Shown piece by piece: positions 3,903-50,164 of a DNA stretch of 55,535 nt. The translations under genes and the position numbers were made by a program. Below the pieces are notes generated by a model. That model was not told the origin of the DNA. It did no database searches and saw only the letters and a list, made by a program, of their open reading frames with translations. Every line of letters begins with the position of its first letter. Position 1 is the first letter of the stretch. Origin of the DNA: an uncultured Syntrophaceae bacterium (lineage in GTDB: Bacteria > Desulfobacterota > Desulfomonilia > Desulfomonilales > Desulfomonilaceae); the NCBI GenBank assembly GCA_964497585.1, contig CAZCDS010000010.1, positions 1-55,535 of the forward strand. Direction: 5' to 3'.

Positions 3903-3985
3903 GCGTTTGCCGGGGAGGGCCGTGAGCAGAAGGGCCCTCCCCAGACTTCCATCCAAAGTCTCTATCGTTTCGCGCCCGTAGGCCC
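3881..3985 (+). repeat. Direct repeat copy 1: last ~7 codons of the Mo-subunit gene plus its terminator hairpin plus ~45 bp.
   Basis: ~85% identical to 15371..15483 (AATCAAGGAA.AG.AAGGGTAAG.GTTTGCCG.GGAGGGC...GCCCTCCCCAG.CTTC.ATCCAAAGTCTCTATCG.TTCGCGCC.GTAGCC). Confidence 0.8.
3912..3942 (+). terminator. GC-rich hairpin (10-bp stem GGGGAGGGCC/GGCCCTCCCC) immediately after the Mo-enzyme operon.
   Basis: Perfect inverted repeat 10 nt after the stop. No U-tract, so a transcript 3' stabiliser or Rho-independent-like terminator. Confidence 0.5.
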
Positions 3986-4370
3986 GGTGCCTTCGTCAAA
4001 ACCCTGCGGCCGCCACGTGGGTACATCATGTTTACGGTGAATGCCGCTGGAATCCGGATTCCCAAGGACATGGCGTGCCCTGCCCTCCCCTTCGCCACCC
4101 GGGACCCATCGCATGAGTCCGCAGAGCGAGAGACAACTATGGTGCGCCGCGAACTCTTCGCGAAATACGCGCCCAAACTCAAAGCCGCATGGTACTTCTG
4201 GAATAGAACCAGCAAACAGGCCGGTCACACCGTTTCTTCGAGACCATCAGCGGCCTCGAGGAGGGCCCCTTTCGAATATTCAACCACTTCCAGGGAATCA
4301 GCGGGACGCTCAAATCGGTCGTCCCGCACTTCGCTTGCGCGATGATGTCAGCACCGGTTACCATAGAAGG

Positions 4371-4554: not shown

Positions 4555-7500
4555 ATGGCAAAGCAGATCAAGTCCCCCAAGTCTACTGGAGGAGGCGGAT
4601 ATCTTTTTGAAGACAAGGTGGTTGCTTACTTCCTCTGCTGCATGTTGACGGATTCGCCCCCCTTCGATCCCGAAGATGGGTCAATCACACGAATTGATTT
4701 CCAGTGTGGCCGGCTGGGTTGGCACCTAGACGATGTACTCCTGTTGTTGGAAACGTCGAATACGAAAAGAAGATGCGCAGTTTCCATCAAGAGCAATAGA
4801 CAGATCACTCAGAATGGTTTCCAACAAGAATTCATTTTGAGTTGCTGGGAGCAGTATCTTGGAGGAGAACCCTTTGAGATATCCAAGGACATGCTCTGTC
4901 TGGTTACAGCACCATTAGGTCTGGAAGTGAGAGATGCGGTCGACGAGTTGCTTCAGTGGTCACGGGTCCAGAAGCCTTCGGACCTGAAAAGAGGTTTGGA
5001 ACAGGCCGGTTCTGCGAACAGGTACCATCGGGCCGTGTTCGACAGCTGTTCCTGTCCCGAAGATCTCCGGGCAGCGCACGGTCTCACGGATGATGACATA
5101 GGCAAGCTGTTGAGTCACGTAAGGGTGCTGAAGTTCGATTTCCAATCAGATCCATCCGACTCTGTTCGAGAAGCCATCCGAATGTGCCGCAATATCCTGC
5201 GAAGTAACTCGGCGCGCGATGCGCAACTCCTCTGGGAGTGGTTATGCAGGATTGCTGCTGACAGCCGACCTCTTGCCGGCTCGTTGGTCCTTCCAAAGCT
5301 CATCGATCAACTGCGATTTGATTTCAAGCTACGCGACTTTCCCACCCATGAAGACGATTGGACGAAACTATGTGAACAGACTGGGACTAGTCTGCAAAGG
5401 ATTTCGGACACCATCGGTGGCGCGGTACGGGTGGATAGGCCAGAGGATCTGCAGCGAATCGGAGATTCTGTGCGCGCCAGCAGGATAACACTGATCGCCG
5501 GTCCCTCAGGCTGCGGCAAGACCGTACTGGCAAAGAAGTTTGCCGAATCAATTAGTGAACGAGCCACGGTGATTTGGTGGAATGCCGGACTCCTGGCACA
5601 CGGAGATTTGACATCGTTCGAGGGGAGCCGTCATCTCACCTATACCCTTAAGCAACTTCTTTCCTCCTTCACGGGCCAGGAAGCCTATCTGATCCTGGAT
5701 GGCCTGGACCGGCAATTTGATCGGGACACTTTCGCCAACCTCGCTGTCGTGATGACCACGCTGCGTCTGGGGGACAAATCAAGCCCCTGGCGAGTAGTCA
5801 TCTCCACCCAGGTGGAAGAAGTGCACAGGTTGCAGCGGGAACTCGCGCTAGCGGGTGTGAAGGCCGATCTCTTCCAGATCGTTCCCATTAAGGAGCCGAC
5901 ATGGCAAGAACTCCAGCCTGTATGGCGTGAATTCCCAGCTCTGGGTAGCCTTTCGCTCCGACCGGAACTCCATAGGCTGCTTTTAAAGCCTAAGATGTTG
6001 CAACTTTTCGCCACTAACATTGCAGACGCGCCGGTATCGGAAATATCAGGTTGGACTGGGGAATCGGACCTGATCGTCTGGTTCTGGGAGAATGTTGTAA
6101 GGAAAGGCCCTTCCGGTGCAACAAGGGACAGCTTTGTCAAGCGCCTTGCCCAAAGACAAGCGGACGAGTGTGCGTCCGAGCTTCCCGGAGACTCATTTGG
6201 CGTAGGCGAAACGGCGCCCTTGGGCGAGTTGATCTGCGACAGGATTTGCACATGCACGGACGAGAGATACACCTTCGAGCATGACCTCTTCGGAGACTGG
6301 GCAAGACAAAGGATTCTGGTCGGCAGGCAAAGCAATCTTGCCGATTATGTTGACGAGAAACTGGATTCTCCTGTGTGGCATCGTGCAGTACAACTGCTGG
6401 GGCTGCATCTCCTTGAACGAAGGTCCGTTGACGAGTGGGTCCAAGTCTGGACCAGCTTGCCACACGAAGGTGATCAGAGGGGACTGGCACAGGATCTCAT
6501 GTTGCAAGCAGTTATATTTGCCGCCAATCCACTTCCCCTGCTGGAGCAGATGTGGCCCGTTCTGAGTCAAGATGAAGGGAAGCTGCTCAATCGATTGCTC
6601 GCTGGATTTCTTCTGGTGGCCACATTTCCCAACAGGGCAATACAAGTCACATTGGCAAGCCTCTACCCGGAGTCTGCGACACACGCCAGAACACTGGAGC
6701 GGATACCCTTCGCGCTTTACTGGCCGCCAATAATCAGGTTCCTGCACAATCACAGCGATGACGTACTCAGACTGGCTCCTTTGAGGGCGGCCGAGGTAGC
6801 GGAGAAATGGCTCCAGTATTCTGAATCTGGTCTTCCGTGCAGGACAGAAGCGGCGGATTTAGCCTTGGAGCAGGCGGAGGACAGACTGGCTTCGAAGATG
6901 GTTTATTGGCGCGGTGTACCTAACGAGAAGTTGGATCGAGTGGTCTTCAAGGGAGCGCTAAAAGCTTATTCTGAGTATCCTGAGCGAACGGTGGCATTCG
7001 CCCTGACTGCCTGCGGAAGACGCCCGCCCTCGGATCGGATGAAGGCGAAGATTGAGTATCAGAGAAGGCTGAACCCGTTGCATGCCGACTCAGACTGCCT
7101 TCGAGAGCATACAGACGAGTGGGTTGAGGTATCATGGCGGCAGCGCTACCGCGATCCAGACGCGCAGCCACCGGATCCATGGCCTGATGGGCCCTCGCGC
7201 ATAGTCGACGAGGGTTTCGCAGAAACCTGCCTCACCACGGATGCGGTTCTCAGACTAGCCGCGACTGATCCTGCCGTGGCCAAAGAGATAGTCCTGGCCT
7301 GCTTGATCGAGACACCAAGTGACAGAATGGACGAACCAGAGATGGACAACCCACTTGCCAAGCTGGGCCTCAGCATGGTGGATCAAGAGTACTACCCTCC
7401 ATTTTGGACGAGGTCACCGTTTTGGCTTTTTCTGGGATTGGATCCGTCGGAAGCTGTTAATCTGATTATCCGGTTGGTGGATTTTGTCACTGAGAGATGG

Positions 7501-9914: not shown

Positions 9915-10175
9915 GGGCTAATCCGGGATTTGCGTGAGCCCGTGAATCCGGGTAGACCATTCCTAATTCCATGTCCATATTTGCGGTCGACAATCATCAG
10001 GTCCGAACGTTCCCCAATGATTGCCGCTGTTGCACAAGTCGGTCCCCTGCCGCCGATTGACGGCGGACCGACCGAAGGCCAGCCCGTCTTGCTGCCGGCA
10101 CTCATCGCACGAGACGTCAACGGCAAAGATAGGCATGATGCACCCAACACTCCTACGCACTCCTGTCTTTTCGGA
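9915..10175 (+). repeat. Interspersed structured repeat, copy A (full length).
   Basis: Contains a 23-nt 5' unit GTGAATCCGGGTAGACCATTCCT, the core TGTCCATATTTGCGGTCGACAATCA...GGTCCGAACGTTCCCCAATGATTGCC, a conserved hairpin GTCGGTCC-CCTG-CCGCC-GATTGAC-GGCGG-A-GGACCGAC, and the tail AAGGGCGGCCCGTCTTGC.... Confidence 0.85.
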
Positions 10176-10318
10176 TCCACAGGAGCCTCCTGAAGTCGTC
10201 ATCAGAGCCAGGGTGGAAGAGGTGACGCCTCAAAAACCTGGGGCCGGATGAATTCCGGGCGCTAGTCCTCTCGTTGCCCGCCCCTAACCTTCCCATCCAT
10301 GAGCGGGATTCTCTTTCG

Positions 10319-10759
10319 CTACAGGGATAGTTCTTCCACGAGGACGACTTTCACGTCGGTTATCGTGGAGAGATTCTTGTCGTTAGTGAGCAACGCATCG
10401 CAATTACCTTGGAGCGCTGAAGCGACTTGAAAGGCGTCGGTGAGAGTCAGATTGTGGCTGGATCGAATGTCCGCAGCTATGCGCGCGGTGTCCCTTTGTA
10501 TGGGGACGAAAACGGAAGAAGGGTCGCCCCCCATAAGCTCAAGAAATGCCTCGATTACGTCAGCCCTTCCCTGTTTCATCGGCAACACGAGGCACTCAGC
10601 CAGCGTGATGGGAGATGTTACCGGTACGAGGTCGCCGGCCTCGAATCGACGGAAGACCGGTTCAAGAATCGAGCAATAGACAGGATGTCGCTCGACGAAA
10701 TAAATGACCGGCGCAGAATCCAGGAAGACGCGATGCATTCCGTTCAGAACTCCGCTCAT
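10319..10759 (-). CDS. PIN-domain toxin (VapC-like).
   Basis: 146 aa, with an N-terminal FLDSAPVIYF motif and C-terminal acidic residues typical of the VapC PIN fold. Immediately downstream of a small antitoxin-like gene. Confidence 0.7.
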   Translation of the reverse strand: MSGVLNGMHRVFLDSAPVIYFVERHPVYCSILEPVFRRFEAGDLVPVTSPITLAECLVLPMKQGRADVIEAFLELMGGDPSSVFVPIQRDTARIAADIRSSHNLTLTDAFQVASALQGNCDALLTNDKNLSTITDVKVVLVEELSL

Positions 10760-10765
10760 TACACA

Positions 10766-11017
10766 TCACCGATTGGTATCCGCAAGGCGCTTTTCATCCG
10801 ATTCTCGACGGGAGTGGGAGATGTAACCCTGAGCGTCTTCTCCGCAGGCAGGATATGACAACATGCCCATCACGTCCGACCACCTACGTGGCGGCTCAGA
10901 CCGGACAACGGTAGAAGCGCGAGCCTTTTCCGCCAGCGCGGCAATCAGGCCTAGCTGCTCTTCGGTAGTCAGCAAGTCAAGCTTTTCGATGATCTCTTCC
11001 AATATCTCGTTTTTCAT
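10766..11017 (-). CDS. Small antitoxin-like protein (addiction-module component family).
   Basis: 83 aa, MKNEILEEIIEKLDLLTTEEQLGLIAALAEKA, resembling DUF2281/TIGR02574-type antitoxins. 6-bp spacing to the vapC-like gene. Confidence 0.55.
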   Translation of the reverse strand: MKNEILEEIIEKLDLLTTEEQLGLIAALAEKARASTVVRSEPPRRWSDVMGMLSYPACGEDAQGYISHSRRESDEKRLADTNR

Positions 11018-11216
11018 GGTCAGGTCTCCTCAGTCGTGCAGTGAATGCCCGCGCACAGCCACACTCCGAGTTCTCTCTCTTCAGGGTATCGGTATCCAAC
11101 AGGAAGTCAAGCATTCGTTCTCAAAGTCGGACCGGCTTCGATCCTGTGTACTCACGGATTCCGCCAAAAGACTTCATCCTCCGCGGTTTCCAGCTTGATG
11201 GCGGAAGGATTGGACA

Positions 11217-11395
11217 TGTGAATCCGGGTATGAATCCGGGTACACTATACCTCATTCTGTGTCCATATTTGGGCCGACAATCGCGCGGTCCGAACGTTCC
11301 CCAATGATTGGCTCTCTTGGACAAGGCAGTCCCTTGACGCCGATTGACGGCGGACCGACCCACAAGGGCGGCCCGTCTTGCCTCCGGCGGTCTAG
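11217..11395 (+). repeat. Interspersed structured repeat, copy B (tandem 5' units, 3'-truncated).
   Basis: GTGAATCCGGGTA-TGAATCCGGGTACACTATACCT, then core TGTCCATATTTGGGCCGACAATCGCGCGGTCCGAACGTTCCCCAATGATTGG... and the GATTGACGGCGGACCGAC hairpin half. Ends after AAGGGCGGCCCGTCTTGCC. Confidence 0.85.
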
Positions 11396-11499
11396 CCTGT
11401 GACGGAAATCGCTCTTGGAGTCATCTCACCGGTACTCGACGCAATCGCGTTGCCCCCCAAAAGGATCTATGGTACGCTTCACAATATTGGTAAACGTGA

Positions 11500-11725
11500 G
11501 CGCGAAATAGCAGTTGCCAAAAGAAGTGGCAGATTTCTTGTGGAAAGATTGCGGAGGGCTCTTTTTTCGGCAAAAAACCACCCTCCGCACCTCCCACAAA
11601 AAACTCCATATTTTCGGCAAACTGCTCCGCTTTGCTTCGCGAGTTTGCAGGATGACGTAGGCGGTTTCTTGAAACATACGCCACCGGCAATAAGACAGAA
11701 TTTTTGACAATCAGTATAATTGCTC
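11500..11725 (+). promoter_or_regulatory. Duplicated ~230-bp leader/regulatory element, copy 1 (upstream of the lactonase-like gene).
   Basis: ~90% identical to 12781..13010. Contains a GCGGAGGGC...GCCCTCCGC hairpin and a TTGACA...TATAAT-like segment. Ends ~70 nt before ATG 11793. Confidence 0.6.
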
Positions 11726-11792
11726 GTTGTTCGCGCACGCTTCTGATTCCGCCGAGCCAGGTTCCGAATGCTCAGGTCGACGGAGACGCATC

Positions 11793-12746
11793 ATGAAAGC
11801 TGTCACTCCTGTTAGCTCACCGAGCGCCAAGGTGCGGGTCGTAGCGAGCGGTCTGGAGTTCCCCGAGGGCCCGATCGCGATGACTGACGGTTCCGTGCTC
11901 GTGACCGAGATTGCCGCTGGCAGACTCACCAGGGTCCTGCAGGACGGTAGGATCGAACACGTCGCCGAGATCGGCGGCGGCCCCAACGGTGCGGCAATCG
12001 GGCCCGATGGAACCGTCTATGTCTGCAACAATGGCGGCAGCTTCTCGTTCCAACGCAAGGACGATCTGCTCGTCTTCGGACTTGTGGCGCCACCCACCTA
12101 CACACAGGGAAGCATTGACCGGGTCGACCTCTCTACAGGCGAGGTTACCACCCTTTACAGCGCCTGTGGCAATCGTCCGCTGCGTGCCCCTAACGATATT
12201 GTCTTCGACAGCACGGGCGGTTTCTGGTTTACCGATCACGGAATACGCACCGAACGGTCGAGCGACTTCACCGGGGTTTTCTATGCCCAGCCCGACGGTT
12301 CAAGTATCACCGAGAAGATCTTTCCTCTGGCCAGCCCGAACGGCATCGCCCTGTCGCCTGACGGAAGTCGTCTCTATGTCGCTGAGACCCAGGTCGGGCG
12401 CATTTGGTATTGGGACCTTGATGGTCCCGGCGAGATTGCGAAGAACTCGGACAGTGAATTCCATGCGGGCAGGCTCCTCTACGGGGCACCGGGCTACGCG
12501 CTGTTCGATTCGATGGCGGTCGACGGCGAGGGCTGGGTATGTCAGGGGACATTGATGGAGGGTGCCATCACCCAGATCGCTCCGGACGGTCGGACGGTCG
12601 AGATCCTGACTCTGAGTGACCCCATGATCACCAATATCTGCTTCGGTGGTCCCGACTACCGCACGGCATTCATAACGTGTTCCGGCACCGGGCAATTGAT
12701 TGCGGTGGACTGGCCGCGACCTGGTTTGCGATTGGCCTTTCCTTGA
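11793..12746 (+). CDS. SMP-30/gluconolactonase/LRE-like beta-propeller hydrolase.
   Basis: ORF 11727..12746. Start placed at MKAVTPV (ATG 11793 after GGAG). Repeated GG..G..DG..Y...N beta-propeller motifs typical of the lactonase/SMP-30 family. Confidence 0.65.
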   Translation: MKAVTPVSSPSAKVRVVASGLEFPEGPIAMTDGSVLVTEIAAGRLTRVLQDGRIEHVAEIGGGPNGAAIGPDGTVYVCNNGGSFSFQRKDDLLVFGLVAPPTYTQGSIDRVDLSTGEVTTLYSACGNRPLRAPNDIVFDSTGGFWFTDHGIRTERSSDFTGVFYAQPDGSSITEKIFPLASPNGIALSPDGSRLYVAETQVGRIWYWDLDGPGEIAKNSDSEFHAGRLLYGAPGYALFDSMAVDGEGWVCQGTLMEGAITQIAPDGRTVEILTLSDPMITNICFGGPDYRTAFITCSGTGQLIAVDWPRPGLRLAFP

Positions 12747-12780
12747 TCGTCTTGATCGAGGGATCGCGTTCCGCTCAGGT

Positions 12781-13010
12781 AGAGCCTGCGCTTATAGCAG
12801 GTGCCAAAAGAAATGGCAGATTTCTTGTGGAAAGATTGCGGAGGGCTCTTTTTTCGGCAGAAAGACCGCCCTCCGCACCTCCCGCAAAAAACTCCATATT
12901 TTCGGCAAACTGCTCCGCTTTGCTTTGCCAGTTTGCAGGATGATGTGGGGCGATTCTTGAAACACACGCCACCACCAATAAGACAGAATTTTTGACAATC
13001 GGTATATGAA
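12781..13010 (+). promoter_or_regulatory. Duplicated ~230-bp leader/regulatory element, copy 2 (upstream of the ThDP enzyme gene).
   Basis: Same ordered motifs as copy 1 (GCCAAAAGAA.TGGCAGATTTCTTGTGGAAAGATTGCGGAGGGCTCTTTTTTCGGCA.AAA.ACC.CCCTCCGCACCTCCC.CAAAAAACTCCATATTTTCGGCAAACTGCTCCGCTTTGCTT...AATAAGACAGAATTTTTGACAATC). Confidence 0.6.
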
Positions 13011-13040
13011 GATGAGCTTGACGTTTTCCGAGGAGACAGC

Positions 13041-14750
13041 ATGGTGAAAACAACCGAGTACATGATCAAAGCGCTTCGGGATCAGGGCATCAGCCACGTT
13101 TTTATCGGTCTTGGCGGCCTGAATGATAACTTCATGCCGCCTTTGACCGAAACCGAGGGTCTGAGGACAGTCGTCACCGCGTTCGAGGGTGGCGCGGCCT
13201 ATATGGCGGACGGCTATTCACGAGCTTCAGGCGGTCTCGGCGTGTGTTTCGGAATCGGTGGCCCAGGCGTTCTCAACATGACTACCGCGCTCGCCGCCGC
13301 AAGCACCGACCGCAGTTCGGTCCTCGCCGTCAGCGGTGAAGTCGCGCGGAGCTGGGAAGGAATGGGCGGCTTTCAGGACGCTTCCCAGGCCGCGATCGAC
13401 GATATCGACATTCTCCGGCGCATAGCGGGATTGTCGCTGTCGATGTCGTCAGCCGCGGTTGTTCCACGTCATCTCAGGCACGCCATAACGTACGCGTTCA
13501 CAAGGCGGTCACCAGTTCACTTGTCAGTGCCTGTCGATGTGCAGAAGGCGGAGATCCACGAAGAATGGCAGCCGATCCCGACATCGCTGTTGTCCGCGAA
13601 ATTCATCGACGAAGAAGCGTTCGCCACTGCGGTCGGCCTGCTCAATAACTCGGAGACCAGAAACATTATCGTACTCGCTGGTCCCGGCGTAAAGGGATAC
13701 GGCGCGGACATGCTGCTCCAGTTCGCGGAGCGGTTTGATGTCCCGGTGGCGACCACACTTTCGGGCAAAGGGGTGATGCCCGAAGATCATCCATTGGCGC
13801 TCGGCGTGTTCGGTTACGGGGGATCGCGTCCGGCGATCGATGCAATCTGCTCCGATGAGGTGGAGGTTCTGCTCGTCATCGGCTCCGGTTTGTCACAACG
13901 CGACACGATGCAATGGGACCCGAGAATGCTTCCCTCCAAGGCGCTGATTCAGGTGGACGCCGACCCGCTGCTGATCGGCCGGACCTGGACCGCCGATGCA
14001 CCGATTGTCGCCGATCCGGCCGCGCTGCTCAAAGAATTGGCGGATCTCCAGGACGCCGCGGAACTCGAGGCCGGTCGCAACTATCGTCTGGACTTTCTGC
14101 GCAAAATCAACGCGCTCGGTCCTCGCTGTTACAGCAGCGAAGACACGGAGAGCAACGCCATACCCATGCATCCGGCGCGGGTCGTGACAGAGCTTCGCGC
14201 GGCTTTCCCTGATAAAGGTGTGCTCTGCGTCGATTCCGGTGCGCACCGAGCCTGGTTCGCCGAGTATTGGGAAGCGCGCCATCCGGGGACCCACTTCTCT
14301 CTGACGAACCTCGGCCCGATGGGCGGAGCAATTCCACTCGGCATCGGCGCAAAGATGGCCCGGCCCGAGCGCCCGCTCATGGTCGCGACGGGAGATGGAT
14401 GTATGCTGATGCACGGCATGGAACTGCACACCGCTGCGCGCGAGGAGGTTCCGCTCGTCATCGCGCTGATGAACAACCAGGCGTACGGCAACATTTACTT
14501 TCGCGCCGCACAGATGGGACCCGGCCCAGAGCATCTCACCGATATTCCCGGCATCGACTGGGTCGCTTTTGCCAAATCGATGGGGGGTGATGGAGAGCGG
14601 GTGGAACGTCCCGAAGGCATCGCGGCGGCCGTCAGCCGTGGGCTCGACGCCTCGGGCCCGTATCTCCTGGATCTTCAAATTGACAAGACCTATCCAACGC
14701 CTGTCGGTGTCTGGCGGGCACGTCAGAAGGAATGGGAGGATAATGACTAA
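13041..14750 (+). CDS. Thiamine-diphosphate-dependent enzyme (acetolactate synthase / benzoylformate decarboxylase superfamily).
   Basis: 569 aa. N-terminal Pyr domain (GISHVFIGLGGLNDNFMPP...GIGGPGVLN), central domain, and C-terminal PP domain with a GDG...N ThDP motif (ATGDGCMLMHGMELHTA...NNQAYGN). Confidence 0.8.
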   Translation: MVKTTEYMIKALRDQGISHVFIGLGGLNDNFMPPLTETEGLRTVVTAFEGGAAYMADGYSRASGGLGVCFGIGGPGVLNMTTALAAASTDRSSVLAVSGEVARSWEGMGGFQDASQAAIDDIDILRRIAGLSLSMSSAAVVPRHLRHAITYAFTRRSPVHLSVPVDVQKAEIHEEWQPIPTSLLSAKFIDEEAFATAVGLLNNSETRNIIVLAGPGVKGYGADMLLQFAERFDVPVATTLSGKGVMPEDHPLALGVFGYGGSRPAIDAICSDEVEVLLVIGSGLSQRDTMQWDPRMLPSKALIQVDADPLLIGRTWTADAPIVADPAALLKELADLQDAAELEAGRNYRLDFLRKINALGPRCYSSEDTESNAIPMHPARVVTELRAAFPDKGVLCVDSGAHRAWFAEYWEARHPGTHFSLTNLGPMGGAIPLGIGAKMARPERPLMVATGDGCMLMHGMELHTAAREEVPLVIALMNNQAYGNIYFRAAQMGPGPEHLTDIPGIDWVAFAKSMGGDGERVERPEGIAAAVSRGLDASGPYLLDLQIDKTYPTPVGVWRARQKEWEDND

Positions 14751-15310
14751 TGGCCGAAATACCCGATCCCACCAATACGCTCGCTGGCAAGGACCGCGAA
14801 TTGTTCGAGCACATGGCGTCCGCGCGCGCATACGCCGAGGGCCGCTCCCATCTGGGCGATGTCTATGTGCGCATGTTCAACAACCCGGGCGTGACCGCGA
14901 AAGTCGGCGCCCTGGGCGAGCATCTGAGATTCCATGGCTTGCTGCCCGATGACGTACGTGAACTGGTGATCCTGCGTTTCTCCGCCCGGCAGGGGTTTCC
15001 CTACGAGTGGTCCCACCATCAGCGTCCGGCAAAGTTGGCCGGAATCAGCCAAGAGGTGATTGACGCCCTGACCGCGGGGGAGGTGCCCAACACGCTGCCT
15101 GATGCCTCACAGGCGACCCTTGAGGCCGTCGACGCGATCGTCGCGAAGAAATCCATCCCGGCAGATGTACAGCGACGATTCGTGGACGTCCATGGCGTGT
15201 CCGGCCTCGTCGAGGTCGTGGCCATCTGCGGCCTGTACTCGATCATGGGATACATGACCACCGCGTTCGACATCCAGATCGAGGAAGGGCTGCCAAAGCC
15301 ACCGTTTTAG
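14750..15310 (+). CDS. Carboxymuconolactone decarboxylase (AhpD-like) family protein.
   Basis: 186 aa. Overlapping TAATG coupling with the ThDP enzyme gene. Helical AhpD-like core. Confidence 0.55.
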   Translation: MAEIPDPTNTLAGKDRELFEHMASARAYAEGRSHLGDVYVRMFNNPGVTAKVGALGEHLRFHGLLPDDVRELVILRFSARQGFPYEWSHHQRPAKLAGISQEVIDALTAGEVPNTLPDASQATLEAVDAIVAKKSIPADVQRRFVDVHGVSGLVEVVAICGLYSIMGYMTTAFDIQIEEGLPKPPF

Positions 15311-15370
15311 GTACGCATCGGTTGTTCCGTGCGAAATCCAAACGCATCAAGCACTTTGATGAACGGACAC

Positions 15371-15483
15371 AATCAAGGAAGAGAAGGGTAAGAGTTTGCC
15401 GTGGAGGGCTTTCAGCAAAAGTGCCCTCCCCAGCCTTCTATCCAAAGTCTCTATCGCTTCGCGCCGGTAGCCCCCCGCCTGCG
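15371..15483 (+). repeat. Direct repeat copy 2 (orphan 3' end of the Mo-subunit gene plus terminator hairpin).
   Basis: Matches 3881..3985, including the codons encoding ...IKE.KG* and the GGAGGGC/GCCCTCC hairpin. No gene body upstream. Confidence 0.8.
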
Positions 15484-15630
15484 GCGAAGGCTTGCGTCCG
15501 CGACGTCGGGGACAACATACGTACCGTGAATGCTGCTGTAATCCGCCTTCGCTAGGGCACCGCGTGCCGTCTTCTCCCTTAGCGACCTTCAACCCATCGT
15601 AAGGGCTGTCAAGGCCGAGAGATAGGTATA

Positions 15631-16241
15631 GTGAACCCCGAACTACTTGAATCCGTTTTCTGCGGCCTGTATCCTGGACCGAGAAGGTGCAGTCTCGGAC
15701 AGGAGAGGAGTGCAGTATTCGTGAGAAGAATCTGCGCATGGTGCGGAAAGGACATGGGCTCGGTGGGGCCTGAAGGCGACGATCCAAAGCCGATTACCCA
15801 CACAGTATATGCGACGACTGTGCACATCACCAGCTTGCCCAGATAGGCATGAACGTGCCGGCCCTCCTTGAGGGCCTTCATTGTCCGGTGATTGTAGTAG
15901 ACTCCACTGGAATAATCGTGACCGGGAACACGAAGGCACTTGAGATGGTTAAGAAGGAGCTGTCGCAGGTTGAGGGCTACCCGGGAGGAGAGGTGTTTGA
16001 ATGCGAGCACGCAAGGCTTCCCGGTGGATGCGGTAATACGGTGCACTGCTCCGGATGCACCATAAGAAAAGCAGTGATGGAAACGCACTCAACAGGAAAG
16101 AGCCTTTTGAGAACTCCGGCCACCTTGCTCCAACACTCATCCGGAGATGCCAAGGAAATACGGCTGCTGATCTCCACGGAGAAGGTCGAGGATGTTGTGC
16201 TGCTGAGGATTGATGAGGTCAATCCGTCCGGTTCAATCTGA
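15631..16241 (+). pseudogene. Zinc-ribbon (CxWCGK...THxxCDDC) + Cys-rich PAS-like sensor protein. Probably one gene split by a frameshift near nt 15802.
   Basis: ORF 15631..15846 (frame 1) encodes ...ICAWCGKDMG...PITH. Frame 0 from 15774 continues ...SICDDCAHHQLAQIG-MNVPALLEGLHCPVIVVDSTGIIVTGNTKALEMV... to 16241. The joined product has a CxxC...CxxC ribbon followed by a PAS-like fold with CEHARLPGGCGNTVHCSGC. Confidence 0.45.
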
Positions 16242-16574
16242 CCCGACACTACAGCGGTTACTCGGCGGCTAGACGCAGGACTCCCAGTGACAGGCGAAAC
16301 CAGCGGGGATCTTGGATAGTGGTTTCTCCGAGGGGAAACCCTTTGTCGGCTCCCCTTCGAAATTCCGGGGGAAGCTGGTCACACCATACTGGCGTTATGT
16401 CCTAAGTTGATGCAGACGACTATCTGCGCGAAACTTCTGTCATTTCACCGTTAGCATCCAGGTATGTCCTTGTTGGGGAGGAGGTCGGGGAAGACAAATC
16501 GATTGAAAGAGCCCGTCTCGAAGGTGGCGTGCAGGCAACATGAGGAATAAGGTAACATTCCTCTCAAGGAGTTA

Positions 16575-17135
16575 GTGATGGGGAATCGTGGCGGTGTACC
16601 TCCGTTGCTCGCTTGGACGCGGCGAGTCATGGATTTGGCCACCAAGCTGATGCAGCTCATTCTTAGCGACTTACGTAACACTGATCGCCCCATAACGGAC
16701 TACGTTTGGCATGCTTGGTTTGTTATGATTATTCCAAGTCTTCCAATCGTGCTCATAGTATTCGCACTATTTGGACCACGCCTTACCCAAGCAGAATTAG
16801 ATGCTAGGCTCCCGTATATGACTTCGACAATGCATGGGGTAATGTTGGTGGTAGGGGCATGGATTGAGACCCTTGTCATGTGGCCAGTTCTATTTCTGCT
16901 TAGGCGAATCCTTGGCAATACCATCTGGGTTCCTGTCGTCTCCGGGTTGATCTGGGCCGGTCTTCATTTCTCTGGGGGGCAAGAGTGGGGCGTGTCGAAG
17001 ATTTGGAGCTTCTTCATTCTTTCAGTATGCTTCTTGGAATGGGAGAAGAAGTCGAAGGGCTTGGCTATTTTGGTCACAGGGCTGGTCCACATGATCTCAA
17101 ACATGGTTGGTTTCCTGTTGATGGTTTGGCTGTGA
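16575..17135 (+). CDS. CPBP-family (CAAX/Abi-like) intramembrane metalloprotease.
   Basis: 186 aa polytopic membrane protein with conserved E...R, FxxxH-like (WAGLHF) and HxxxN (HMISN) motifs. Local GC noticeably lower than flanks. Confidence 0.55.
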   Translation: MMGNRGGVPPLLAWTRRVMDLATKLMQLILSDLRNTDRPITDYVWHAWFVMIIPSLPIVLIVFALFGPRLTQAELDARLPYMTSTMHGVMLVVGAWIETLVMWPVLFLLRRILGNTIWVPVVSGLIWAGLHFSGGQEWGVSKIWSFFILSVCFLEWEKKSKGLAILVTGLVHMISNMVGFLLMVWL

Positions 17136-17314
17136 CCTTTCCTTTCTGAAAGTACCCGGAGTGTGGGAAGCGATAACCAGGCGAGTCGTATCCGAAAGAA
17201 TTTTGTCGGTGCCGGCCTCGCTAACCCTGAGAGTAGGGCTTCCCTTTGGGATCGGATGATTGATTCGATGATTCGATTGGATGAATCCTTGCGAAGCCGT
17301 TTGGCTAAACTCTA

Positions 17315-17535
17315 GTGGGTGCCCAAGGGTAGCCATCATTCTGATTCTGTGTCCATATTCCCTCTCGACAATTATGCGGTCCGAGCATCCCCCAATGATT
17401 GCCTCTCTTGCACAAGTCGGTCCCATTCTGCCGACTAACCGAACACCGACGCAAGGGCGGCCCGTCTTGCACGGGCTGGCACTCATCGTATGAGCCGTCA
17501 GGCCCCAGAGACACCTATGGTGTCCCCCGAACTCG
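17315..17535 (+). repeat. Interspersed structured repeat, copy C.
   Basis: Core TGTCCATATTCCCTCTCGACAATTATGCGGTCCGAGCATCCCCCAATGATTGCC, degenerate hairpin, tail AAGGGCGGCCCGTCTTGCACGGGCTGGCACTCATCGTATGAGCCGTCAGG and the AGAGACACCTATGGTGTCCCCC motif. Confidence 0.85.
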
Positions 17536-17686
17536 GCCCGAACTTCTGTCCCTCGAACTTTGCCTGCCGCGTATCGGGTCGACAGCACAGTCGGGATAAT
17601 GCCTGCTTTCAGCATGAGTCAACGTCTCTAGGGGCGTTACCCCGACGACCTTGACACGGCCCTTCGGGCACCCGAAGGGTGTGCGG

Positions 17687-19672
17687 TTATTCCGACGAGC
17701 ACGGTTCGCTCATCTCGCTCCCTGCTGTCGGGGCTTCCATGCGACTTTGAATCGTCTTGAACTGATAGAGATGCGCCAGTTGGCTTTGAGTCAGTCTTAG
17801 ACCTCGTTCCCGAAGCAACTTTGCAGTTTCTGTATGGCCGTTATGGACTGCCACCATAAGTGCCAGCTTGCCGAGGTTATTCTTGCCGGTAATTCTCGCT
17901 CCCTTGTCCAGCATGAGCCGGACCAGCTCAGTATCACCTGACTCGGCCGCCACTTCGATAGGAATGGTAAGAGGTCGGGGCACCTCTAGTCTCCCTCCGG
18001 AATAGTGCGTGACCAGGGCTTCGTTGACATCCGCTCCGTGTTCTACCAAGAGCCGCATAACTTGCAGATGGTGGCCGTCGGCAGCCGCGATCAAAGGGGT
18101 ACCATCGTACCTTGTTCCCGCTCGAACGTCGGCGCCCCTTGTCAGGAGGAATTCGACCACCTTCGCGTGACCTTTCTTTGCAGCCTCCAGTAAAGCTGAG
18201 CCGTCGCCACGGTTCCGGGGATTGATTTCCGCACCACCGTCTACGAGGATCTTAACCATTTTCAGGTCACCGCGTCGCGCGGCCTCCTTGAACGGTGTGC
18301 GTCCAAAACGCATCTCCTCGTTGGGATCGGCCCCCCGTGCCAGCAACAGTCGAGCGATCCTGTGCCTTCCGTATTGGACGGCGACAAAGAGCAGTGAACC
18401 GGTACCGCAAAACCTTTGTGCACGGTCGAGATCGCCCTACTCCTCTAGACGCCGGCGAACCTCCGCAGCATCCCCCACTGCGACGGCCCCATCGAGAGTC
18501 AGTTTGGCCCCAGCGTCTATCAGCACGTCGACCACGTCACTGTAACCAGAAAGGACGGCGATGGAAAGTGCCGTGGCGCCTTTCCAGACCGCATTGACAT
18601 CCGCTCCTCGGTCCGTGAGGAGTCTGATCGCCTTAGGGTGACCTCGACTGGCTGCGTACATGAGTACCGTCTCACCGTCCCTATTCCTGGCATTAGGGTC
18701 TGCCCCGGCCTCCAGCAGTATCTTTACGACTTCCGGCCGATTACCTTCAGCCGCGATCATGAGCGCTGTCTGTTGCCCCCACGGGTCTAACGCATTGATC
18801 TCGGCTCCCTTGCCCAGGAGCAGTCGTACGACGGCAGGATTACCTGCCCAAGCGGCGGTCATGAGAGCGGTCCAGGTCCTATAACTGTACGTCGCCGCAT
18901 TGACGTCGAGCCCTCGATCCAGAAGGAGCTTGACGACTTTCAGCCGGCCGTGTCGAACGGCCTCGTTGAAGGCGCTTTGGGTGAACTCGGCATTTCCTTT
19001 GAGGTTCTTGACGCGATCGAGAAGCAGTTTCACCACCTTCACGTGGCCGTGGCCGGCTGCCAACCTCGTAGACACTCTGATACTGGGTATGAGATCCGGG
19101 GGCACAGGTGCGTTGCCACTTCGCTCTTGCGTCTCGCCGGTCGAACCGACGGCCAAGTCCTCACTGAGAAGTCGTCGTACGGTTGCTGCGTCTCCGAGCA
19201 ACGCGGCACTGCTGAGGGTCTGTTTCGCTCCGTGGGTCAGGAGAAGCTTCACGATCTCAGTGTGCCCCTCGCCCGCAGCCACGTCTACGGCGGTCCTTCC
19301 GCGAGCAGTCACTGCACGCAAGTCTGCACCGTGATTCAAAAGCAGCTCGGTTATTTCGAGGTTCCCACGCCGAGCCGCGATCATCAAGGCCGCTGTACGA
19401 TACTTGTCCGCCTCATCCGCGTCGGCGGCCTCGCATAGCAGCCGTTTGGTGAGCCTGAGGTTCCCTTCCCTGACAGCATCCAAAAGGGGATTCCTATGCC
19501 ACCAGGGACGTGAGGTTACGTCAACACCGTGTTCTCTGTAATGAGCCTCAGCCTCCCGCGCAGGATCGGTGTCTGCAAGAACGTTGAGGGTCGGGAAGCT
19601 CGGGGCAAAACATACCAGTCCACCGATGAACACCGTCGCGGCGAACATGACGACGCGATTGCCGTGCATCAT
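17687..19672 (-). pseudogene. Secreted ankyrin-repeat protein (~660 aa) interrupted by an in-frame TAG at 18437..18439.
   Basis: ORFs 18437..19783 and 17687..18346 are in the same frame. Translation across the gap reads ...VRRRLEE*GDLDRAQRFCGTGSLLFVAVQYGRHRIARLLLARGADPNEE..., a continuous ankyrin repeat. The downstream part has no ATG of its own. N-terminus MMHGNRVVMFAATVFIGGLVCFA is a signal peptide (start 19672, RBS GGAG). Confidence 0.6.
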
Positions 19673-19741
19673 TCTTGACTCCTCTGGCGAGGCGAGTTGT
19701 CTCAAGCATTTGTCACCCTTGGGGACATCACCTCCGGCGAA

Positions 19742-19945
19742 ACCATCGTTGATTTTGAATCCATATTTGCGGCCGACAATCACGCGGTGCGAACGTTCCC
19801 CAATGATTGCCTCTCTTGGACACGTCGGTCCCTTTCTGCCGATTGACGGCGGACCGACTCAAGAGCGGCCCTCCCTCACTAGGTACAACCGTCCCATGAG
19901 CTGTCAGGCTACAGAGATGGGTATGGTGTTCCCAGGAATCTTGAA
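19742..19945 (+). repeat. Interspersed structured repeat, copy D.
   Basis: ATCCATATTTGCGGCCGACAATCACGCGGTGCGAACGTTCCCCAATGATTGCCTCTCTTGGACACGTCGGTCCC...GCCGATTGACGGCGGACCGAC..., lying between two ankyrin genes. Confidence 0.85.
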
Positions 19946-20018
19946 CCAGCCAACGAACGGCGCCGAGCCATTCCGCGCGAATCCTCACCGGGCTTACTGA
20001 GAGGTTACCTTCTCCGCA

Positions 20019-23000
20019 CTATTCCGTGGCACCTCGGGACCTGAGGAACTGAGCGACTTTCTTCTGTCCCTCGCACCGTGCCATCCACAGGGCAGTCCTG
20101 CCATACCTGCCTCTGCCGTTGATATCCGCTCCGTTATCCAGAAGAAGCTTGACTACATTCAGGTGACCTCGTTCTGCCGCCGACTGCAAAGGCGTGTGGC
20201 CGAGTGAGCCAGCCCGCGCGTTGACATCGGCACCATCATTTATCAGCCGTTGGACCTGTTGCACATCCCCCATGAGAGCGGCGACATCCAGCGTCATCAC
20301 AGCGCCACGCTCCAGGAGTATTCTTGCTTTTTCCGGGCTGCCGTATCGGACGGCGTTCTCCAGGGGAGTGCGGCCGTCTTTTGCTGTAACGTTGACGTGA
20401 GCCCCTTTATCCAGGAGCAGTTTCATGATGTCCACCTTGCCGGGCCTTGCCGCCGCAGCCATCAGGGGTGTATTTCCGAGGCCAGACCTGACATTGACAT
20501 CGGCGCCCTTGTCAAGGAGCAACTTCACCATTTCTAAGTCACTGCGTCCCCCGGCATACCAGGACAAGACGCTCCGGCCTCGTATGGTCCTCGTCCGGAT
20601 GTCAGCACCTCTGGCGATGAGCATTCTTGCTGCTTCGTGATGGGCGTACATGACTGCATCTTGAAGGGCAGTCGCGCCTTTATTGTCCACTATGTTCATA
20701 TCCGCGCCTCTCTTCACCAGCAAACTTACCAGGTCCAAGTTTCTGCCGAATCGGGCCGCGGCCATCAAGGCAGTCCTTCCCTTCTTGTCCGTAGCGTTTA
20801 CGTTTGCTCCGTTGTCAAGGAGAAATTTCACGTCTTGAAGAATGTGCTGCTTGGGAGAAGAGCCCTTTGCCCTGGTTCTGTATCTCGTGGCTCCGTTTAC
20901 GACAGCGACGAGTGGTGTGCGGCCATGTCGGTCCCTTGCGTTGATATCGGCCCCCTTGTCGAGCAGCAGCTTAGCTACCCACTCCTGGCCCGTGGCCAGT
21001 GCTTCTATTAGCAGCGGGTCACCATTGGGGCATCGTGCGTTGACGTTTGCTCCCTTTTCGATAAGCAGTTTCACCACTTCCGGACTCACGTTTCCATCAG
21101 GCAGGGAAGGCTCAATAGCGAAGTACAGAGGTGCTCCCCCGTGCATCCCCGCCATGTTCACATCAGCACCTCCTTCTATCAGCGCCTTGACCATCGCCAA
21201 CCTCCGTCCCATGCAAGCATCAGTTAGAGGCGTATGCCTGTCATGGCAGGACGATACGTTGACGCGAGCACCCTTTTGGGTGAGAAGCCTTACCATATCC
21301 AGATTGCCCTTCAGCGCGGCTATGGCCAGAGCTGTTTCTCCCCGGTTGTCTTTCGCGTTCACGTCGGCTTTGTATTGCAAGAGCAGTTTGACCAACCCCA
21401 TGTGGTTGCCTGATGCAGCGTGCACCAGTGCAGTTTGACCACGGGCATCCCGTGCGTTTACGTCGGCCCCTTGCTTGAGAACGACCTCCAGCCCTTTCTC
21501 GTCTTTCATAGCGGCCAGATGGCTCACGTTGAGCGTGACGCCACGGTCTTTCAGTAGTTTCACGACATTCGAGTGCCCATGCTCCATCGCTCTCAGGAGC
21601 GCGGTCATCCGGGACTGGTCCTGCTTTTTCGAGGAGTCCGCTCTGTCCAGCAATAGCTTCACCATGTCGGTTCGGCCATTCGCGGCTGCCAGGACTATTG
21701 GGCTGTCACCTCCTCGGTTCCCTCCCTTAGGAGGAACACCACTATCCAGAAGATACTTCACTACGTCGATGTGTCCCGCTGCAGTTGCCTGGAATAGTGC
21801 CTGCCCTCCCTGTCCGTTCTCTCCGGTAAGACGAGCCCCTTTCTTCACCAGCAGCTTCACCATTTCCAGATCGCCTTTCCCAGCTACCACGGTGAGTGCA
21901 GTGTAGCAGCTCTGGATTCTGGTTCCTCCCTCGCACGCCCAGTGGTTTACGTCCGCTCCATTATCGATAAGCAGCTTCATGACCTCCCGGTGGCCACCCA
22001 TGGCAGCGAGAACCAACGGATTGCCCACCATGGATGCGGGACCTTTGTTGACGTCAGCCTCATGCTCCAACAACAGTCGCACCATCTCGATGTGCCCACG
22101 CTGGGAGGCTTCTGCCAGTGGAGTCAACACGAACATCGCGTCAACGTTAGCCCCTCTGGCCAGCAGAAGCTCTGCAACTGCCTTGTAACCTCCTTGGGCA
22201 GCTACCATTAGCGGAGTTTGTCGGTCCATGAAGAGAGTAGTAGGACCCGGCCCTGCCCCTGCGTTCACACCCACTCCATTATCCAGGAGCGACCTTACCA
22301 CTTCCAAGTGCCCTTTTCCGGCAGCGGCCAAGAGGGCTTCGTTGCCACCGAGTCTACGGACCCTTTGAGCCTTATCATCCTTCATTTTGGCCAGTTGCCG
22401 CTTCACTTCCTCAACATCCCCCAGGACGGAAGCTACCTTGAGGGTCATTGGGACGCCCCGAGCCAGGAGCAGCTTGACTATATCGAGATGCCCTTTATCG
22501 GCAGCCGCCCACAATGCTTTCCTACCGCTGTCCCCTGTCGAGATGACATCAGGGCGCCTGTCCAGGATCAGTTTGACGATTGCTGAGTGCCCTGTCCGAG
22601 CGGCATCAGCAAGGGCGTCCGTGCTTGGTACACGCCCGGGGTTTGCATCGATCTCAGCCCCTCTTTCCAGGAGCAGATTCGCAATTTCCAGATGTCCCTT
22701 CAGTGCAGCATTAACCAATGGGGTGGCGTATTCTTTGTCTGAGTTGACATTCGCGCCTCGGTCCAGGAGAAGCTTCACCACTTCCAAGTGTCCGTGCAAA
22801 GCTGCCTCCCACAAGGCCGACCTCCCGCGGCCTCGTGCGTTGACGTCAGCCCCCCTGTCCAACAGGAGTTTCACAACTTCCAGGTGCCCGTTTCGAGCAC
22901 TAAGAGGCAGAGCCGCAAGGAAACTCTCGGCCGTAGGGTTCACATCGCTTCCCTTGGCAAGGAGGAGCTTCACCACCGCCATGTGTCCTCCTGCAGCGGC

Positions 23001-23219
23001 AGCAGCGAGCGGAGTGCGGCCGTTAGGGTATCGGGCATTGATATCAGATCCTCTGCTCAAGAGCCGCACAACCTCCTCCAAATGGCCTTTCGCGGCGGCT
23101 TTGATCAAGGCCCGGTCCTGGTCCGGCATCCGGTTAGACTGCCCAAGCGCCACCAGAGGCAACAGCAACGCGAAAGTCACCACCACTACCACACCGATAT
23201 GAAAGCGATTCAGGGACAC
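20019..23219 (-). CDS. Giant secreted ankyrin-repeat protein (~1066 aa, ~28 ankyrin repeats).
   Basis: Start re-assigned to GTG 23219 (GGAGG-N6-GTG), giving signal peptide VSLNRFHIGVVVVVTFALLLPLVALGQS. The 85 codons upstream in the ORF track are a read-through of the 23-nt tandem repeats (MVYPDSTGMVYPDST). The body is uninterrupted G-TPL-AA--GH---V--LL--GADVN repeats. Confidence 0.8.
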   Translation of the reverse strand: MSLNRFHIGVVVVVTFALLLPLVALGQSNRMPDQDRALIKAAAKGHLEEVVRLLSRGSDINARYPNGRTPLAAAAAGGHMAVVKLLLAKGSDVNPTAESFLAALPLSARNGHLEVVKLLLDRGADVNARGRGRSALWEAALHGHLEVVKLLLDRGANVNSDKEYATPLVNAALKGHLEIANLLLERGAEIDANPGRVPSTDALADAARTGHSAIVKLILDRRPDVISTGDSGRKALWAAADKGHLDIVKLLLARGVPMTLKVASVLGDVEEVKRQLAKMKDDKAQRVRRLGGNEALLAAAGKGHLEVVRSLLDNGVGVNAGAGPGPTTLFMDRQTPLMVAAQGGYKAVAELLLARGANVDAMFVLTPLAEASQRGHIEMVRLLLEHEADVNKGPASMVGNPLVLAAMGGHREVMKLLIDNGADVNHWACEGGTRIQSCYTALTVVAGKGDLEMVKLLVKKGARLTGENGQGGQALFQATAAGHIDVVKYLLDSGVPPKGGNRGGDSPIVLAAANGRTDMVKLLLDRADSSKKQDQSRMTALLRAMEHGHSNVVKLLKDRGVTLNVSHLAAMKDEKGLEVVLKQGADVNARDARGQTALVHAASGNHMGLVKLLLQYKADVNAKDNRGETALAIAALKGNLDMVRLLTQKGARVNVSSCHDRHTPLTDACMGRRLAMVKALIEGGADVNMAGMHGGAPLYFAIEPSLPDGNVSPEVVKLLIEKGANVNARCPNGDPLLIEALATGQEWVAKLLLDKGADINARDRHGRTPLVAVVNGATRYRTRAKGSSPKQHILQDVKFLLDNGANVNATDKKGRTALMAAARFGRNLDLVSLLVKRGADMNIVDNKGATALQDAVMYAHHEAARMLIARGADIRTRTIRGRSVLSWYAGGRSDLEMVKLLLDKGADVNVRSGLGNTPLMAAAARPGKVDIMKLLLDKGAHVNVTAKDGRTPLENAVRYGSPEKARILLERGAVMTLDVAALMGDVQQVQRLINDGADVNARAGSLGHTPLQSAAERGHLNVVKLLLDNGADINGRGRYGRTALWMARCEGQKKVAQFLRSRGATE

Positions 23220-23320
23220 AACCTGCCTCCTACTCCCAACGGATCGGTTGCCTGTTCGCGCTGACACTACCTGATGCACCAAAGTCTTCGCGTACGGAAT
23301 GCGCGTTCCCGAGTCAAGCC

Positions 23321-23412
23321 CGTGGAATGCGGGTACACCAATCCTAACTCCGTGTCCATATTTGCGGTTGACAATCACCTGGTCCGAGCGTCCCCCAATG
23401 ATTGGCCCTCTT
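23321..23412 (+). repeat. Interspersed structured repeat, copy E (5' half only).
   Basis: GTGGAATGCGGGTACACCAATCCTAACTCCGTGTCCATATTTGCGGTTGACAATCACCTGGTCCGAGCGTCCCCCAATGATTGG, then interrupted by copy F. Confidence 0.8.
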
Positions 23413-23655
23413 GTGGAATCTGGGTACACCATACCTGTGGAATCTGGGTACACCATACCTAATTCCGTGTGCATATTTCCTCTCGAGAATTACCGAGTCC
23501 GAACGTTCCTCCATGATTGCCCCTCTTGCCCACGTCGGTCCCCTGCCGCCGATTGACGGCGGACCGACGCAAGGGCGGCCCGTCTTGCACGGGCTGGCAC
23601 GCATCGTATGAGCCGTCAACGGCAGAGATAAGTATGGTCTCTCCCGAGGTTTCGA
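23413..23655 (+). repeat. Interspersed structured repeat, copy F (full length, with two perfect 23-nt 5' units).
   Basis: TGGAATCTGGGTACACCATACCTG x2, then core TGTGCATATTTCC..., the perfect hairpin GTCGGTCCCCTGCCGCCGATTGACGGCGGACCGAC, and tail AAGGGCGGCCCGTCTTGCACGGGCTGGCACGCATCGTATGAGCCGTCAACGGCAGAGATAAGTATGGTCTCTCCC. Confidence 0.85.
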
Positions 23656-23690
23656 ACTCTCATCTTCTCTGCGTGCAACCAGTGCAAAGG

Positions 23691-24423: not shown

Positions 24424-24751
24424 GCCCCAACCTTTTCGAGGAGTTTTTCAAGATCCGTCCCGATCTCATGGGCGACTGTCAGAACTTCCTTGATGAGCTG
24501 AACCGTGCTCTTATTGGGAGCTTGTCCTGGTATCCAGGATTTGTATCGCCCGGCGCAATCATTTCATCACTGTCCGCGCTCCTTTGTCAACTCCCGGAGA
24601 TGCCGGACGCGTTGGACTCTCGCGGGACTTGTTATAATATGAGTATCCACGAGGAATTCAGGCCCGCTTTTTCCGCTCGCGTCGGATTCCTCACGGAATC
24701 GGTTCCTTAGGGGATCGCTTCGGATCGATCCGCTGTTACGGGATAGGCAAC

Positions 24752-50106: not shown

Positions 50107-50164
50107 TGTGCTATCATGTCTCCTTGAGAAACAGAATTCGGCTGATGCCACCAGGAGGTTGACG

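Follow-up and report, generated by a model that had tools for sequence, protein, structure and literature searches.

A family of inverted-ended, co-oriented repeats at the gene-module junctions of an accessory island in an uncultured Syntrophaceae bacterium

A family of short non-coding repeats punctuates a defence and accessory island on contig CAZCDS010000010.1 of an uncultured Syntrophaceae bacterium (GenBank assembly GCA_964497585.1). The whole stretch of 55,535 nucleotides was analysed and is referred to here as the window. Nine copies and fragments of the family, every one on the + strand, span about 20 kb and stand at every junction between the gene modules of the ~20-kb island. The repeats are real, non-coding, inverted-ended and rare, with breakpoints inside copies and an excess of divergence, and miniature inverted-repeat transposable elements (MITEs) are the closest known class. 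The reading that we prefer, tentatively and at somewhat less than an even chance, is a family of MITE-like elements that spread long ago and whose direct copies have since become substrates for recombination. Transposition would then be the origin of the family, and recombination or gene conversion its present activity.

The repeat family and its island

Repeat finding in the window returns families of 91-160 nt at 9.9, 11.2, 17.3, 19.7, 23.3 and 23.4 kb. A 24-nt core, GGTCCGAACGTTCCCCAATGATTG, has six matches at no more than three mismatches, all on the + strand, and none in 100 shuffles. The copies were placed by nhmmer with a family profile hidden Markov model (HMM) built from the copies themselves. 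Full copies measure 215-250 nt, the long form being about 235 bp, and the family HMM finds neither copy nor fragment in the remaining ~35 kb of the window. An earlier note, made from the sequence by eye, had reported six copies in one orientation, and both the HMM and the core matches confirm these at about the positions it gave. Six is not the full set, however, as three fragments are to be added (4088-4158, 15559-15669 and a weak one at 16361-16417). Copy B, formerly ended at 11395, runs on through a degenerate 3' third to about 11450, and pairwise identity in the multiple alignment is 64-84% rather than the ~75-85% first estimated. The copies and fragments are as follows.

Zs, 4088-4158, + strand: 3' fragment with the right inverted repeat (HMM 160-231, E 1.2e-5) at the island's left edge, between a xanthine-dehydrogenase-family (XDH-like) gene and an Avs-like STAND gene; its right-end unit is TATGGTGCGCCGCGAACTC
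A, 9931-10177, + strand: full length with a decayed right inverted repeat (227.6 bits), between the end of the STAND gene (9837) and vapC (10319..10759, - strand)
B, 11215-11450, + strand: 5' two-thirds intact and 3' third degenerate (179.3 bits, HMM 3-241), between vapB (start 11017, - strand) and the lactonase module; 5' unit partly doubled
B3s, 15559-15669, + strand: 3' fragment with the right inverted repeat present (HMM 133-253, E 1.6e-18)
G5, 16361-16417, + strand: 5' stub consisting of the left inverted repeat and about 20 nt (HMM 8-64, weak, E 0.5)
C, 17308-17547, + strand: full length with a degenerate left inverted repeat (212.2 bits, HMM 9-241), downstream of an ankyrin gene (17687..18346, - strand); right-end unit repeated, with a further unit at 17543-17564
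D, 19732-19946, + strand: full length with a degenerate left inverted repeat (208.1 bits), between two ankyrin genes
E, 23314-23414, + strand: 5' fragment (HMM 6-106, 100.6 bits), located about 80 nt ahead of where the 1151-aa ankyrin open reading frame (ORF) probably starts
F, 23413-23668 (HMM match 23431-23668), + strand: full length (229.8 bits), with tandem 24-nt left-end units at 23413-23436 and 23437-23460; right edge of the array, adjoining a HEPN-MNT pair

The partial copies break at differing HMM positions (about 45-64, 106 and 133-160). E and F had been described as a nested or tandem pair; E directly abuts F, and a nested insertion is not supported since no 3' remainder of E follows F.

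The island begins directly after the XDH-like Mo-subunit gene (1521..3902), and a class-V aminotransferase gene comes after the HEPN-MNT pair that closes it on the right. Its order, from left to right, is:

Left part: Zs; Avs4-like STAND ATPase gene, 4555..9837; A; VapC/VapB genes on the - strand; B; genes for an SGL lactonase, a TPP enzyme and CMD; B3s
Right part: B3s; PAS-like gene (split); G5; two small ORFs on the - strand; C; two ankyrin genes on the - strand; D; ankyrin gene of 1151 aa on the - strand; E and F; HEPN-MNT on the - strand

The position of the copies between gene units, in one orientation while the flanking genes lie on both strands, is thus borne out. The STAND gene (4555-9837, + strand, 1760 aa) had been called NACHT. 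Its product has weak P-loop Pfam matches only, together with an NCBIfam match to Avs4 (AVAST type 4, E 2e-23) that falls well short of the family cut-off. The protein belongs with the Avs-like STAND proteins, its subtype being unclear.

The element has an ordered anatomy. The 3' tail, AGAGA..TATGGTGT.CCC, was recognised before but not as what it is, the reverse complement of the 5' unit, and the element therefore has imperfect terminal inverted repeats of about 24 bp, GGAATCCGGGTACACCATACCTA on the left and, reverse-complemented, GAGTTCGGGGTACACCATACCTA on the right. Such inverted repeats are seen in the full copies A, C, D and F and in two copies of a close relative (L3mid and L3A, described below), with some ends degenerate. 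A 14-nt core of the inverted repeat is matched eight times in the window, where 0.15 matches would be expected; five of the eight are left ends on the + strand and two are right ends on the - strand. The end units are reiterated. One to three tandem 23-nt units had been proposed at the 5' end; the doubling is clear in F only (2 x 24 nt), partial in B and degenerate in A. End units that contain CGAAC occur three times after copy C, and CCCGGAACT occurs twice in L015, a contig of another genome. In addition, a 22-nt unit that resembles the right end, CTTCTGTCCCTCG.AC..TGCC, is found at 17543-17564, just after C, and at 20061-20082, about 115 nt past copy D and within the 3' end of the large ankyrin ORF.

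The interior consists of a conserved core bearing the short palindromes GTCGAC, GAACGTTC and CAATGATTG, a long hairpin (GTCGGTCC...CCGCC-GATTGAC-GGCGG-ACCGAC), a small variable hairpin in two versions and a CTCAT-CGY-ATGAG hairpin; CAGAGA directly precedes the right inverted repeat. The long hairpin, which had been taken as conserved throughout, is whole in three copies (A, D and F), weaker in B and broken up in C. The best-conserved stretch is the 24 columns CGTTCCCCAATGATTGCCTCTCTT, with a mean pairwise identity of 89%, compared with 75-87% over positions 40-145. Copies A, B, D and F match the motif GCCGATTGACGGCGG exactly, and L3mid departs from it at a single position.

The conservation is not that of a protein. 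Substitutions are spread over the three codon positions as 41/45/44, showing no codon periodicity. One frame on the + strand and one on the - strand are open across most copies, and indels break the frames. The lack of periodicity and the frame-breaking indels place the conservation at the nucleotide level, as the earlier note had held. A protein-coding role is rejected on the same lack of periodicity; the open + and - frames have their third positions in common, as can be the case for frames that are open by chance in GC-rich DNA. The right inverted repeat contains an outward-reading ATG, which was considered as a gene start and dismissed on inspection, the peptides not being conserved past the repeat. 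The template and variable repeats of a diversity-generating retroelement are excluded by the absence of base bias, the change rates per base being 0.18 for A and 0.19 for each of C, G and T, and no reverse transcriptase is encoded in the 55 kb.

Module differences from a close relative

The family is very rare, lineage-restricted and previously undescribed. By the names that homologs at ~80% identity carry, its host belongs to Thermodesulfobacteriota, close to Desulfomonilaceae. Logan contigs of SRR14802572 reproduce the window and break inside copies A and C. Pattern scans of a collection with one genome per species gave a single match, attributable to chance, and no true copy; scans of JGI metagenomes and of viral contigs gave no copy, the 28 viral matches to a 16-nt end pattern (15 specified bases) being at chance level. 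Plasmid and phage collections yielded no match, and the end motif was not found in full-text papers. With the open - frame as a bait protein, a single cluster, P0001, was retrieved from 5.8 billion sequences, and P0001 was again the sole true match among representatives of 15 billion proteins. It leads to two JGI contigs, L003 and L004, which come from different samples and are 100% identical over 2984 bp. The element was not found at loci of XDH homologs at ~80% identity, nor at loci of VapC homologs at 70-79% identity save for a solo end unit in L015. On this 544-kb contig of another genome, a near-consensus right-end unit, CAGAGACAATTGAGTATGGTGTACCCGGAACTCCCGGAACTCC, lies at 10470-10510, 25 nt past the stop of a VapC homolog with 73% amino-acid identity, with no full element nearby. 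Within the collections scanned, the element outside the source genome is thus confined to L003/L004 of a close relative and to the solo end unit of L015.

The relative's XDH-like JGI protein falls in the same 90% cluster as that of the window and is 98% identical to it. Contig L003 carries, in order, an HSDR_N-like gene, the repeat L3A, VapC and VapB, the repeat L3mid, the PAS gene and the repeat L3end, the three copies being co-oriented. Three module-level changes separate the window from this relative within 7 kb, and all of them fall at repeats. To the left of copy A, homology stops at the first base of the left inverted repeat, with the STAND gene in the window and another gene in L003. 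A 4.2-kb module lies between B (HMM 3-241) and B3s (133-253) in the window, where L003 has a single full L3mid; B3s is the positional ortholog of the 3' part of L3mid. A 0.9-kb module lies between G5 (8-64) and C (9-241) in the window, where L003 has a single L3end. G5 was recognised by alignment, being about 92% identical to the left end in L003. It corresponds to the left end of L3end, a copy with a G5-like left end and a C-like body. Overlapping partial copies that flank an indel are the pattern left by one crossover between direct repeats. Such an event could have deleted a module from the relative, or it could have added one to the window by Campbell-type insertion.

The repeats have changed much faster than the DNA around them. 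The VapBC block, including its non-coding parts, is 93.3% identical between window and relative with a transition/transversion ratio (ts/tv) of 1.7, and the PAS block is 92.8% identical with a ts/tv of 1.0, whereas repeats at the same position are only 74-77% identical with a ts/tv of about 0.9. Repeat turnover is about 3.5 times that of the DNA on both sides. Copies at the same position are not mutually closest, L3mid being closer to D (80.7%) than to B (77%), and the nearest paralog shifts from segment to segment along a copy. At about 40% of the differing sites, both states are also found in other paralogs. From the alignments, such a pattern would fit replacement or gene conversion among paralogs, two processes that it does not distinguish, better than point mutation in situ.

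Origin and present activity of the repeats

Assignment to the MITE class rests on the terminal inverted repeats, the length of about 235 bp, the lack of coding capacity and the several partial or degenerate copies; the role as recombination substrates follows from all copies being direct repeats. The inverted ends with uncompensated mismatches, the short palindromes, the reiterated end units and the truncated copies point to mobile or recombinogenic DNA that is recognised by a protein, rather than to an RNA or a protein gene. In the mechanism proposed here, an enzyme supplied in trans, a transposase or a recombinase, would have spread the copies by acting on the end units, and the tandem end units and conserved internal palindromes would be its binding sites. 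Transposase, integrase and reverse transcriptase genes were sought across the 55 kb and none was found, including TnpA, TnpB, IntI and tyrosine or serine recombinases; any enzyme would therefore act in trans. The copies are old and partly decayed, and may have gathered in one permissive accessory island. Crossovers within repeats would delete, insert or swap modules (the Avs-like STAND gene, VapBC, the lactonase/TPP enzyme/CMD genes, the PAS gene, the small ORFs and the ankyrin genes), and the repeats may exchange sequence with one another, by which they would be scrambled faster than their flanks.

Several observations weigh against this reading. No autonomous partner is known. All nine copies lie on one strand (9/9, two-sided binomial p 0.004, rising to about 0.016 when the pairs Zs/B3s and E/F each count as one), and random cut-and-paste insertion does not predict such uniform orientation. 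All copies fall within 20 kb, with none in the other 35 kb of the window. The inverted repeats are 63-68% identical while the best 24 nt of the core are 89% identical (permutation p < 0.0002), the reverse of the usual MITE pattern. Identity between copies never exceeds 84%, which gives no indication of recent transposition, and the longest identical stretches between copies are 35-38 nt, a poor substrate for RecA-type exchange. A consistent target-site duplication was sought at the element ends and not found; a possible TA/TA flanking duplication is present in L3A only, and since the copies are old, the duplication could have decayed. Of the earlier proposal of a MITE or an element derived from insertion sequence (IS) ends, the MITE-like class is the best supported, with an incomplete fit for want of a target-site duplication and of a partner transposase in the window.

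The main alternative, though one on the doubtful side, is a cassette array, integron-like or attP-like, or a series of tandemly accreted integrative modules, in which the repeats would be dedicated sites for a recombinase encoded elsewhere. Such a recombinase would bind the end units as arm-type sites together with an internal core, for example CCGCC-GATTGAC-GGCGG, and would integrate and excise modules beside the 3' end of the XDH-like gene. The single orientation, the presence of one site per module junction and the confinement, within the window, to a single island that starts after a conserved gene all accord with this. So does a direct repeat of about 280 nt, in which 3880-4158 and 15370-15669, 11.5 kb apart within the island, are 82% identical. 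Its two copies each lead into a fragment of the family:

3880..4087, + strand: end of the XDH-like gene (its last ~22 nt), then a terminator-like hairpin and a spacer, running into Zs
15370..15558, + strand: the same XDH tail, terminator and spacer, inside the island after the CMD gene and followed by B3s

A duplication of this kind arises when an element integrates at the end of a target gene and tandem accretion follows (for the concept, see PMC5704250). The XDH-tail duplication, seen once in the window and not at the island's right border, may be the footprint of integration at the gene's 3' end. Only 3' parts are present at the leftmost site, Zs, and at its duplicate inside the island, B3s; the latter sets in with the 3' arm of the central palindrome (HMM 133), the former further 3' (HMM 160). 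The tandem repetition of the end units and the stronger conservation of the core than of the ends, with GCCGATTGACGGCGG exact in four copies, are likewise in favour, as are the three module-level changes at repeats against a relative with 98% XDH identity. The VapC homolog of L015 (73%) is again trailed by a near-consensus right-end unit, and the cargo, toxin-antitoxin pairs and an Avs-like STAND protein, is typical of arrays and islands.

However, no integrase or recombinase is encoded in the 55 kb, and the breakpoints of the partial copies are scattered rather than gathered at a single crossover point. The halves of sites that lie beside conserved modules are as diverged as the distal halves, something that a fixed central crossover would not predict. 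The canonical end motifs of attC are absent, and the modules reach 6 kb, some of them with promoter-like regions of their own. A more specific version, a cassette platform unrelated to integrons, is unlikely. In it, a recombinase from another locus would act at ~235-bp sites made of arm-type end units and a core, and would thereby assemble and reshuffle modules for defence, toxin-antitoxin and accessory functions beside a conserved gene.

Canonical integron attC sites, in a cluster lacking an integrase (CALIN), are an almost negligible prospect. Co-oriented imperfect palindromes do lie between cassettes, and toxin-antitoxin genes are among these. However, neither RYYYAAC nor GTTRRRY is found within 25 nt of any element end, no IntI is encoded, and the cassettes are long and lie on both strands. 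The attC sites measure 57-141 nt, and the element at about 235 nt is too long.

A very slight chance attaches to non-autonomous elements of the IS200/IS605 type, resembling palindrome-associated transposable elements (PATEs), or to remnants of TnpB/IscB guide RNAs, inserted strand-specifically via single-stranded DNA. Transposition through single strands would account for the uniform orientation, and subterminal hairpins exist. However, the IS200/IS605 family is not known to have terminal inverted repeats, and the element has true ones of 24 bp. The left flanks differ between copies, and no conserved target of 4-5 nt was found 5' of the left end. The window encodes neither TnpA nor TnpB, and Rfam has no match. 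The IS200/605-type origin raised in the earlier note is accordingly not upheld.

The same note had offered a family of small structured RNA genes, and multicopy genes for a structured small RNA of about 230 nt transcribed from the + strand are improbable. The orientation is uniform whatever the direction of the flanking genes, and the core is conserved. Both strands fold at somewhat lower energy than their shuffles do (z = -2.8), and in helices 2 and 4 several of the changes give G-U wobbles when read on the + strand. However, both strands fold about equally well, as those of any inverted-repeat DNA would. RNAalifold finds hairpins with an unfavourable covariation term of +1.88, a value drawn from seven full copies and hence of low power. 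In the named structure, a terminal stem with five hairpins, 80.0% of cells are paired across the seven full copies compared with 78.9% after shuffling, and 88 of 500 shuffles equal or exceed the observed value. In the long hairpin and in the terminal stem, a change more often destroys a pair than preserves it. Of the 19 inverted-repeat pairs in that stem, 9 depart solely through unpaired cells and are uncompensated, as expected for protein-binding ends and not for a paired stem. No copy has an Rfam match at gathering thresholds or at E up to 10, a Twister-sister match at E 4.8 being judged noise, and there is no tRNA. Matches resembling a promoter or a terminator were sought in all copies without success: no sigma-70 promoter matches within the element, and a sigma-54 promoter was rejected on inspection, the TGGCAC of some copies lacking a correctly spaced GC. 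Truncated copies are also common.

Relation to known systems and meaning for the island

Other features of the window lie beside the repeats. A direct repeat of about 215 nt (11507-11718 and 12794-13006, 88-96% identical) has one copy upstream of the lactonase gene and the other upstream of the TPP-enzyme gene. It contains a palindrome, GCGGAGGGC...GCCCTCCGC, as well as a match to a sigma-70-like promoter at 11692-11720, and looks like a duplicated promoter or regulatory region. The PAS-like gene (15631-16241, + strand) is split into two frames in the window and intact, with 203 aa, in the relative (L003 238-849); its called start codon is the ATG within the right inverted repeat (TATGGTG). 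Beyond the array, HEPN genes flank the aminotransferase gene in the regions 23691-24423 (- strand) and 26118-26844 (+ strand). The left HEPN gene (23691-24092) is paired with a nucleotidyltransferase (MNT) gene at 24079-24423, and a candidate partner ORF accompanies the right one (26118-26459). A 521-aa ORF (24707-26272, - strand) is spurious because it has no family matches and is antisense to the clear class-V aminotransferase gene (24752-25987, + strand). Farther along, the region 46738-52691 holds a cyclase-STAND-TPR gene in a patch of 63-68% GC, then a lower-GC patch with a putAbiC-like gene (50496-51587) and a 367-aa ORF; it may be a second defence-type region, one that is without repeat copies.

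The Correia/NEMIS elements of Neisseria and the ERIC/IRU elements of enterobacteria are MITEs of 100-300 bp, non-coding, intergenic and lineage-restricted, with terminal inverted repeats and with full, truncated and internally deleted forms. Bacterial MITEs can also carry functional internal sites. The present family resembles these elements in being small, non-coding, intergenic, inverted-ended and lineage-restricted and in having partial forms. It differs from them in that its copies are co-oriented, confined within the window to one island, 64-84% alike and more conserved in the core than at the ends, with no target-site duplication or partner IS found in the window. The BOX elements of Streptococcus pneumoniae and the BIMEs and REP clusters are modular interspersed repeats with a sub-unit that can be tandemly reiterated; they occur genome-wide and do not delimit modules. 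The family shares with them the modular build, the reiterable sub-unit and the lack of coding, but has no sequence relationship to them, and its copies delimit gene modules.

Integron attC sites and CALINs are likewise co-oriented imperfect palindromes at each junction, with toxin-antitoxin cassettes and whole-cassette differences between relatives. In contrast to them, the repeats lack R-box motifs, are roughly twice the maximum attC length, have no IntI in the window and bound modules of up to 6 kb on both strands, and the sites that flank a shared module are not conserved with the module. Accreted integrative elements and cis-mobilizable elements (CIMEs) offer a further comparison, in which direct repeats bound modules without integration genes (PMC5704250). 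As in CIMEs, the island lies at a gene 3' end that is duplicated inside it, and partial sites stand at the edge of the array (PMC5704250). Unlike in CIMEs, nine sites lie in 20 kb with modules of 0.1-6 kb, far denser than in described accretions, no integrase is found in the window, and the repeats are of ~235 bp with inverted ends instead of short identical cores (PMC5704250).

If the repeats are only a decayed MITE family, they add modestly to what is known, as a new repeat specific to an uncultured lineage of Thermodesulfobacteriota. If the cassette platform were true, each event would re-assort or replace sites, which would explain sites far more diverged than modules between relatives. 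Relatives with 98% core-protein identity differ by whole modules exactly at the repeats, and this provides a testable case of how an island is built and reshuffled. The mechanism at work in the island could be generic recombination between co-oriented repeats, or it could be a site-specific system not recognised so far.

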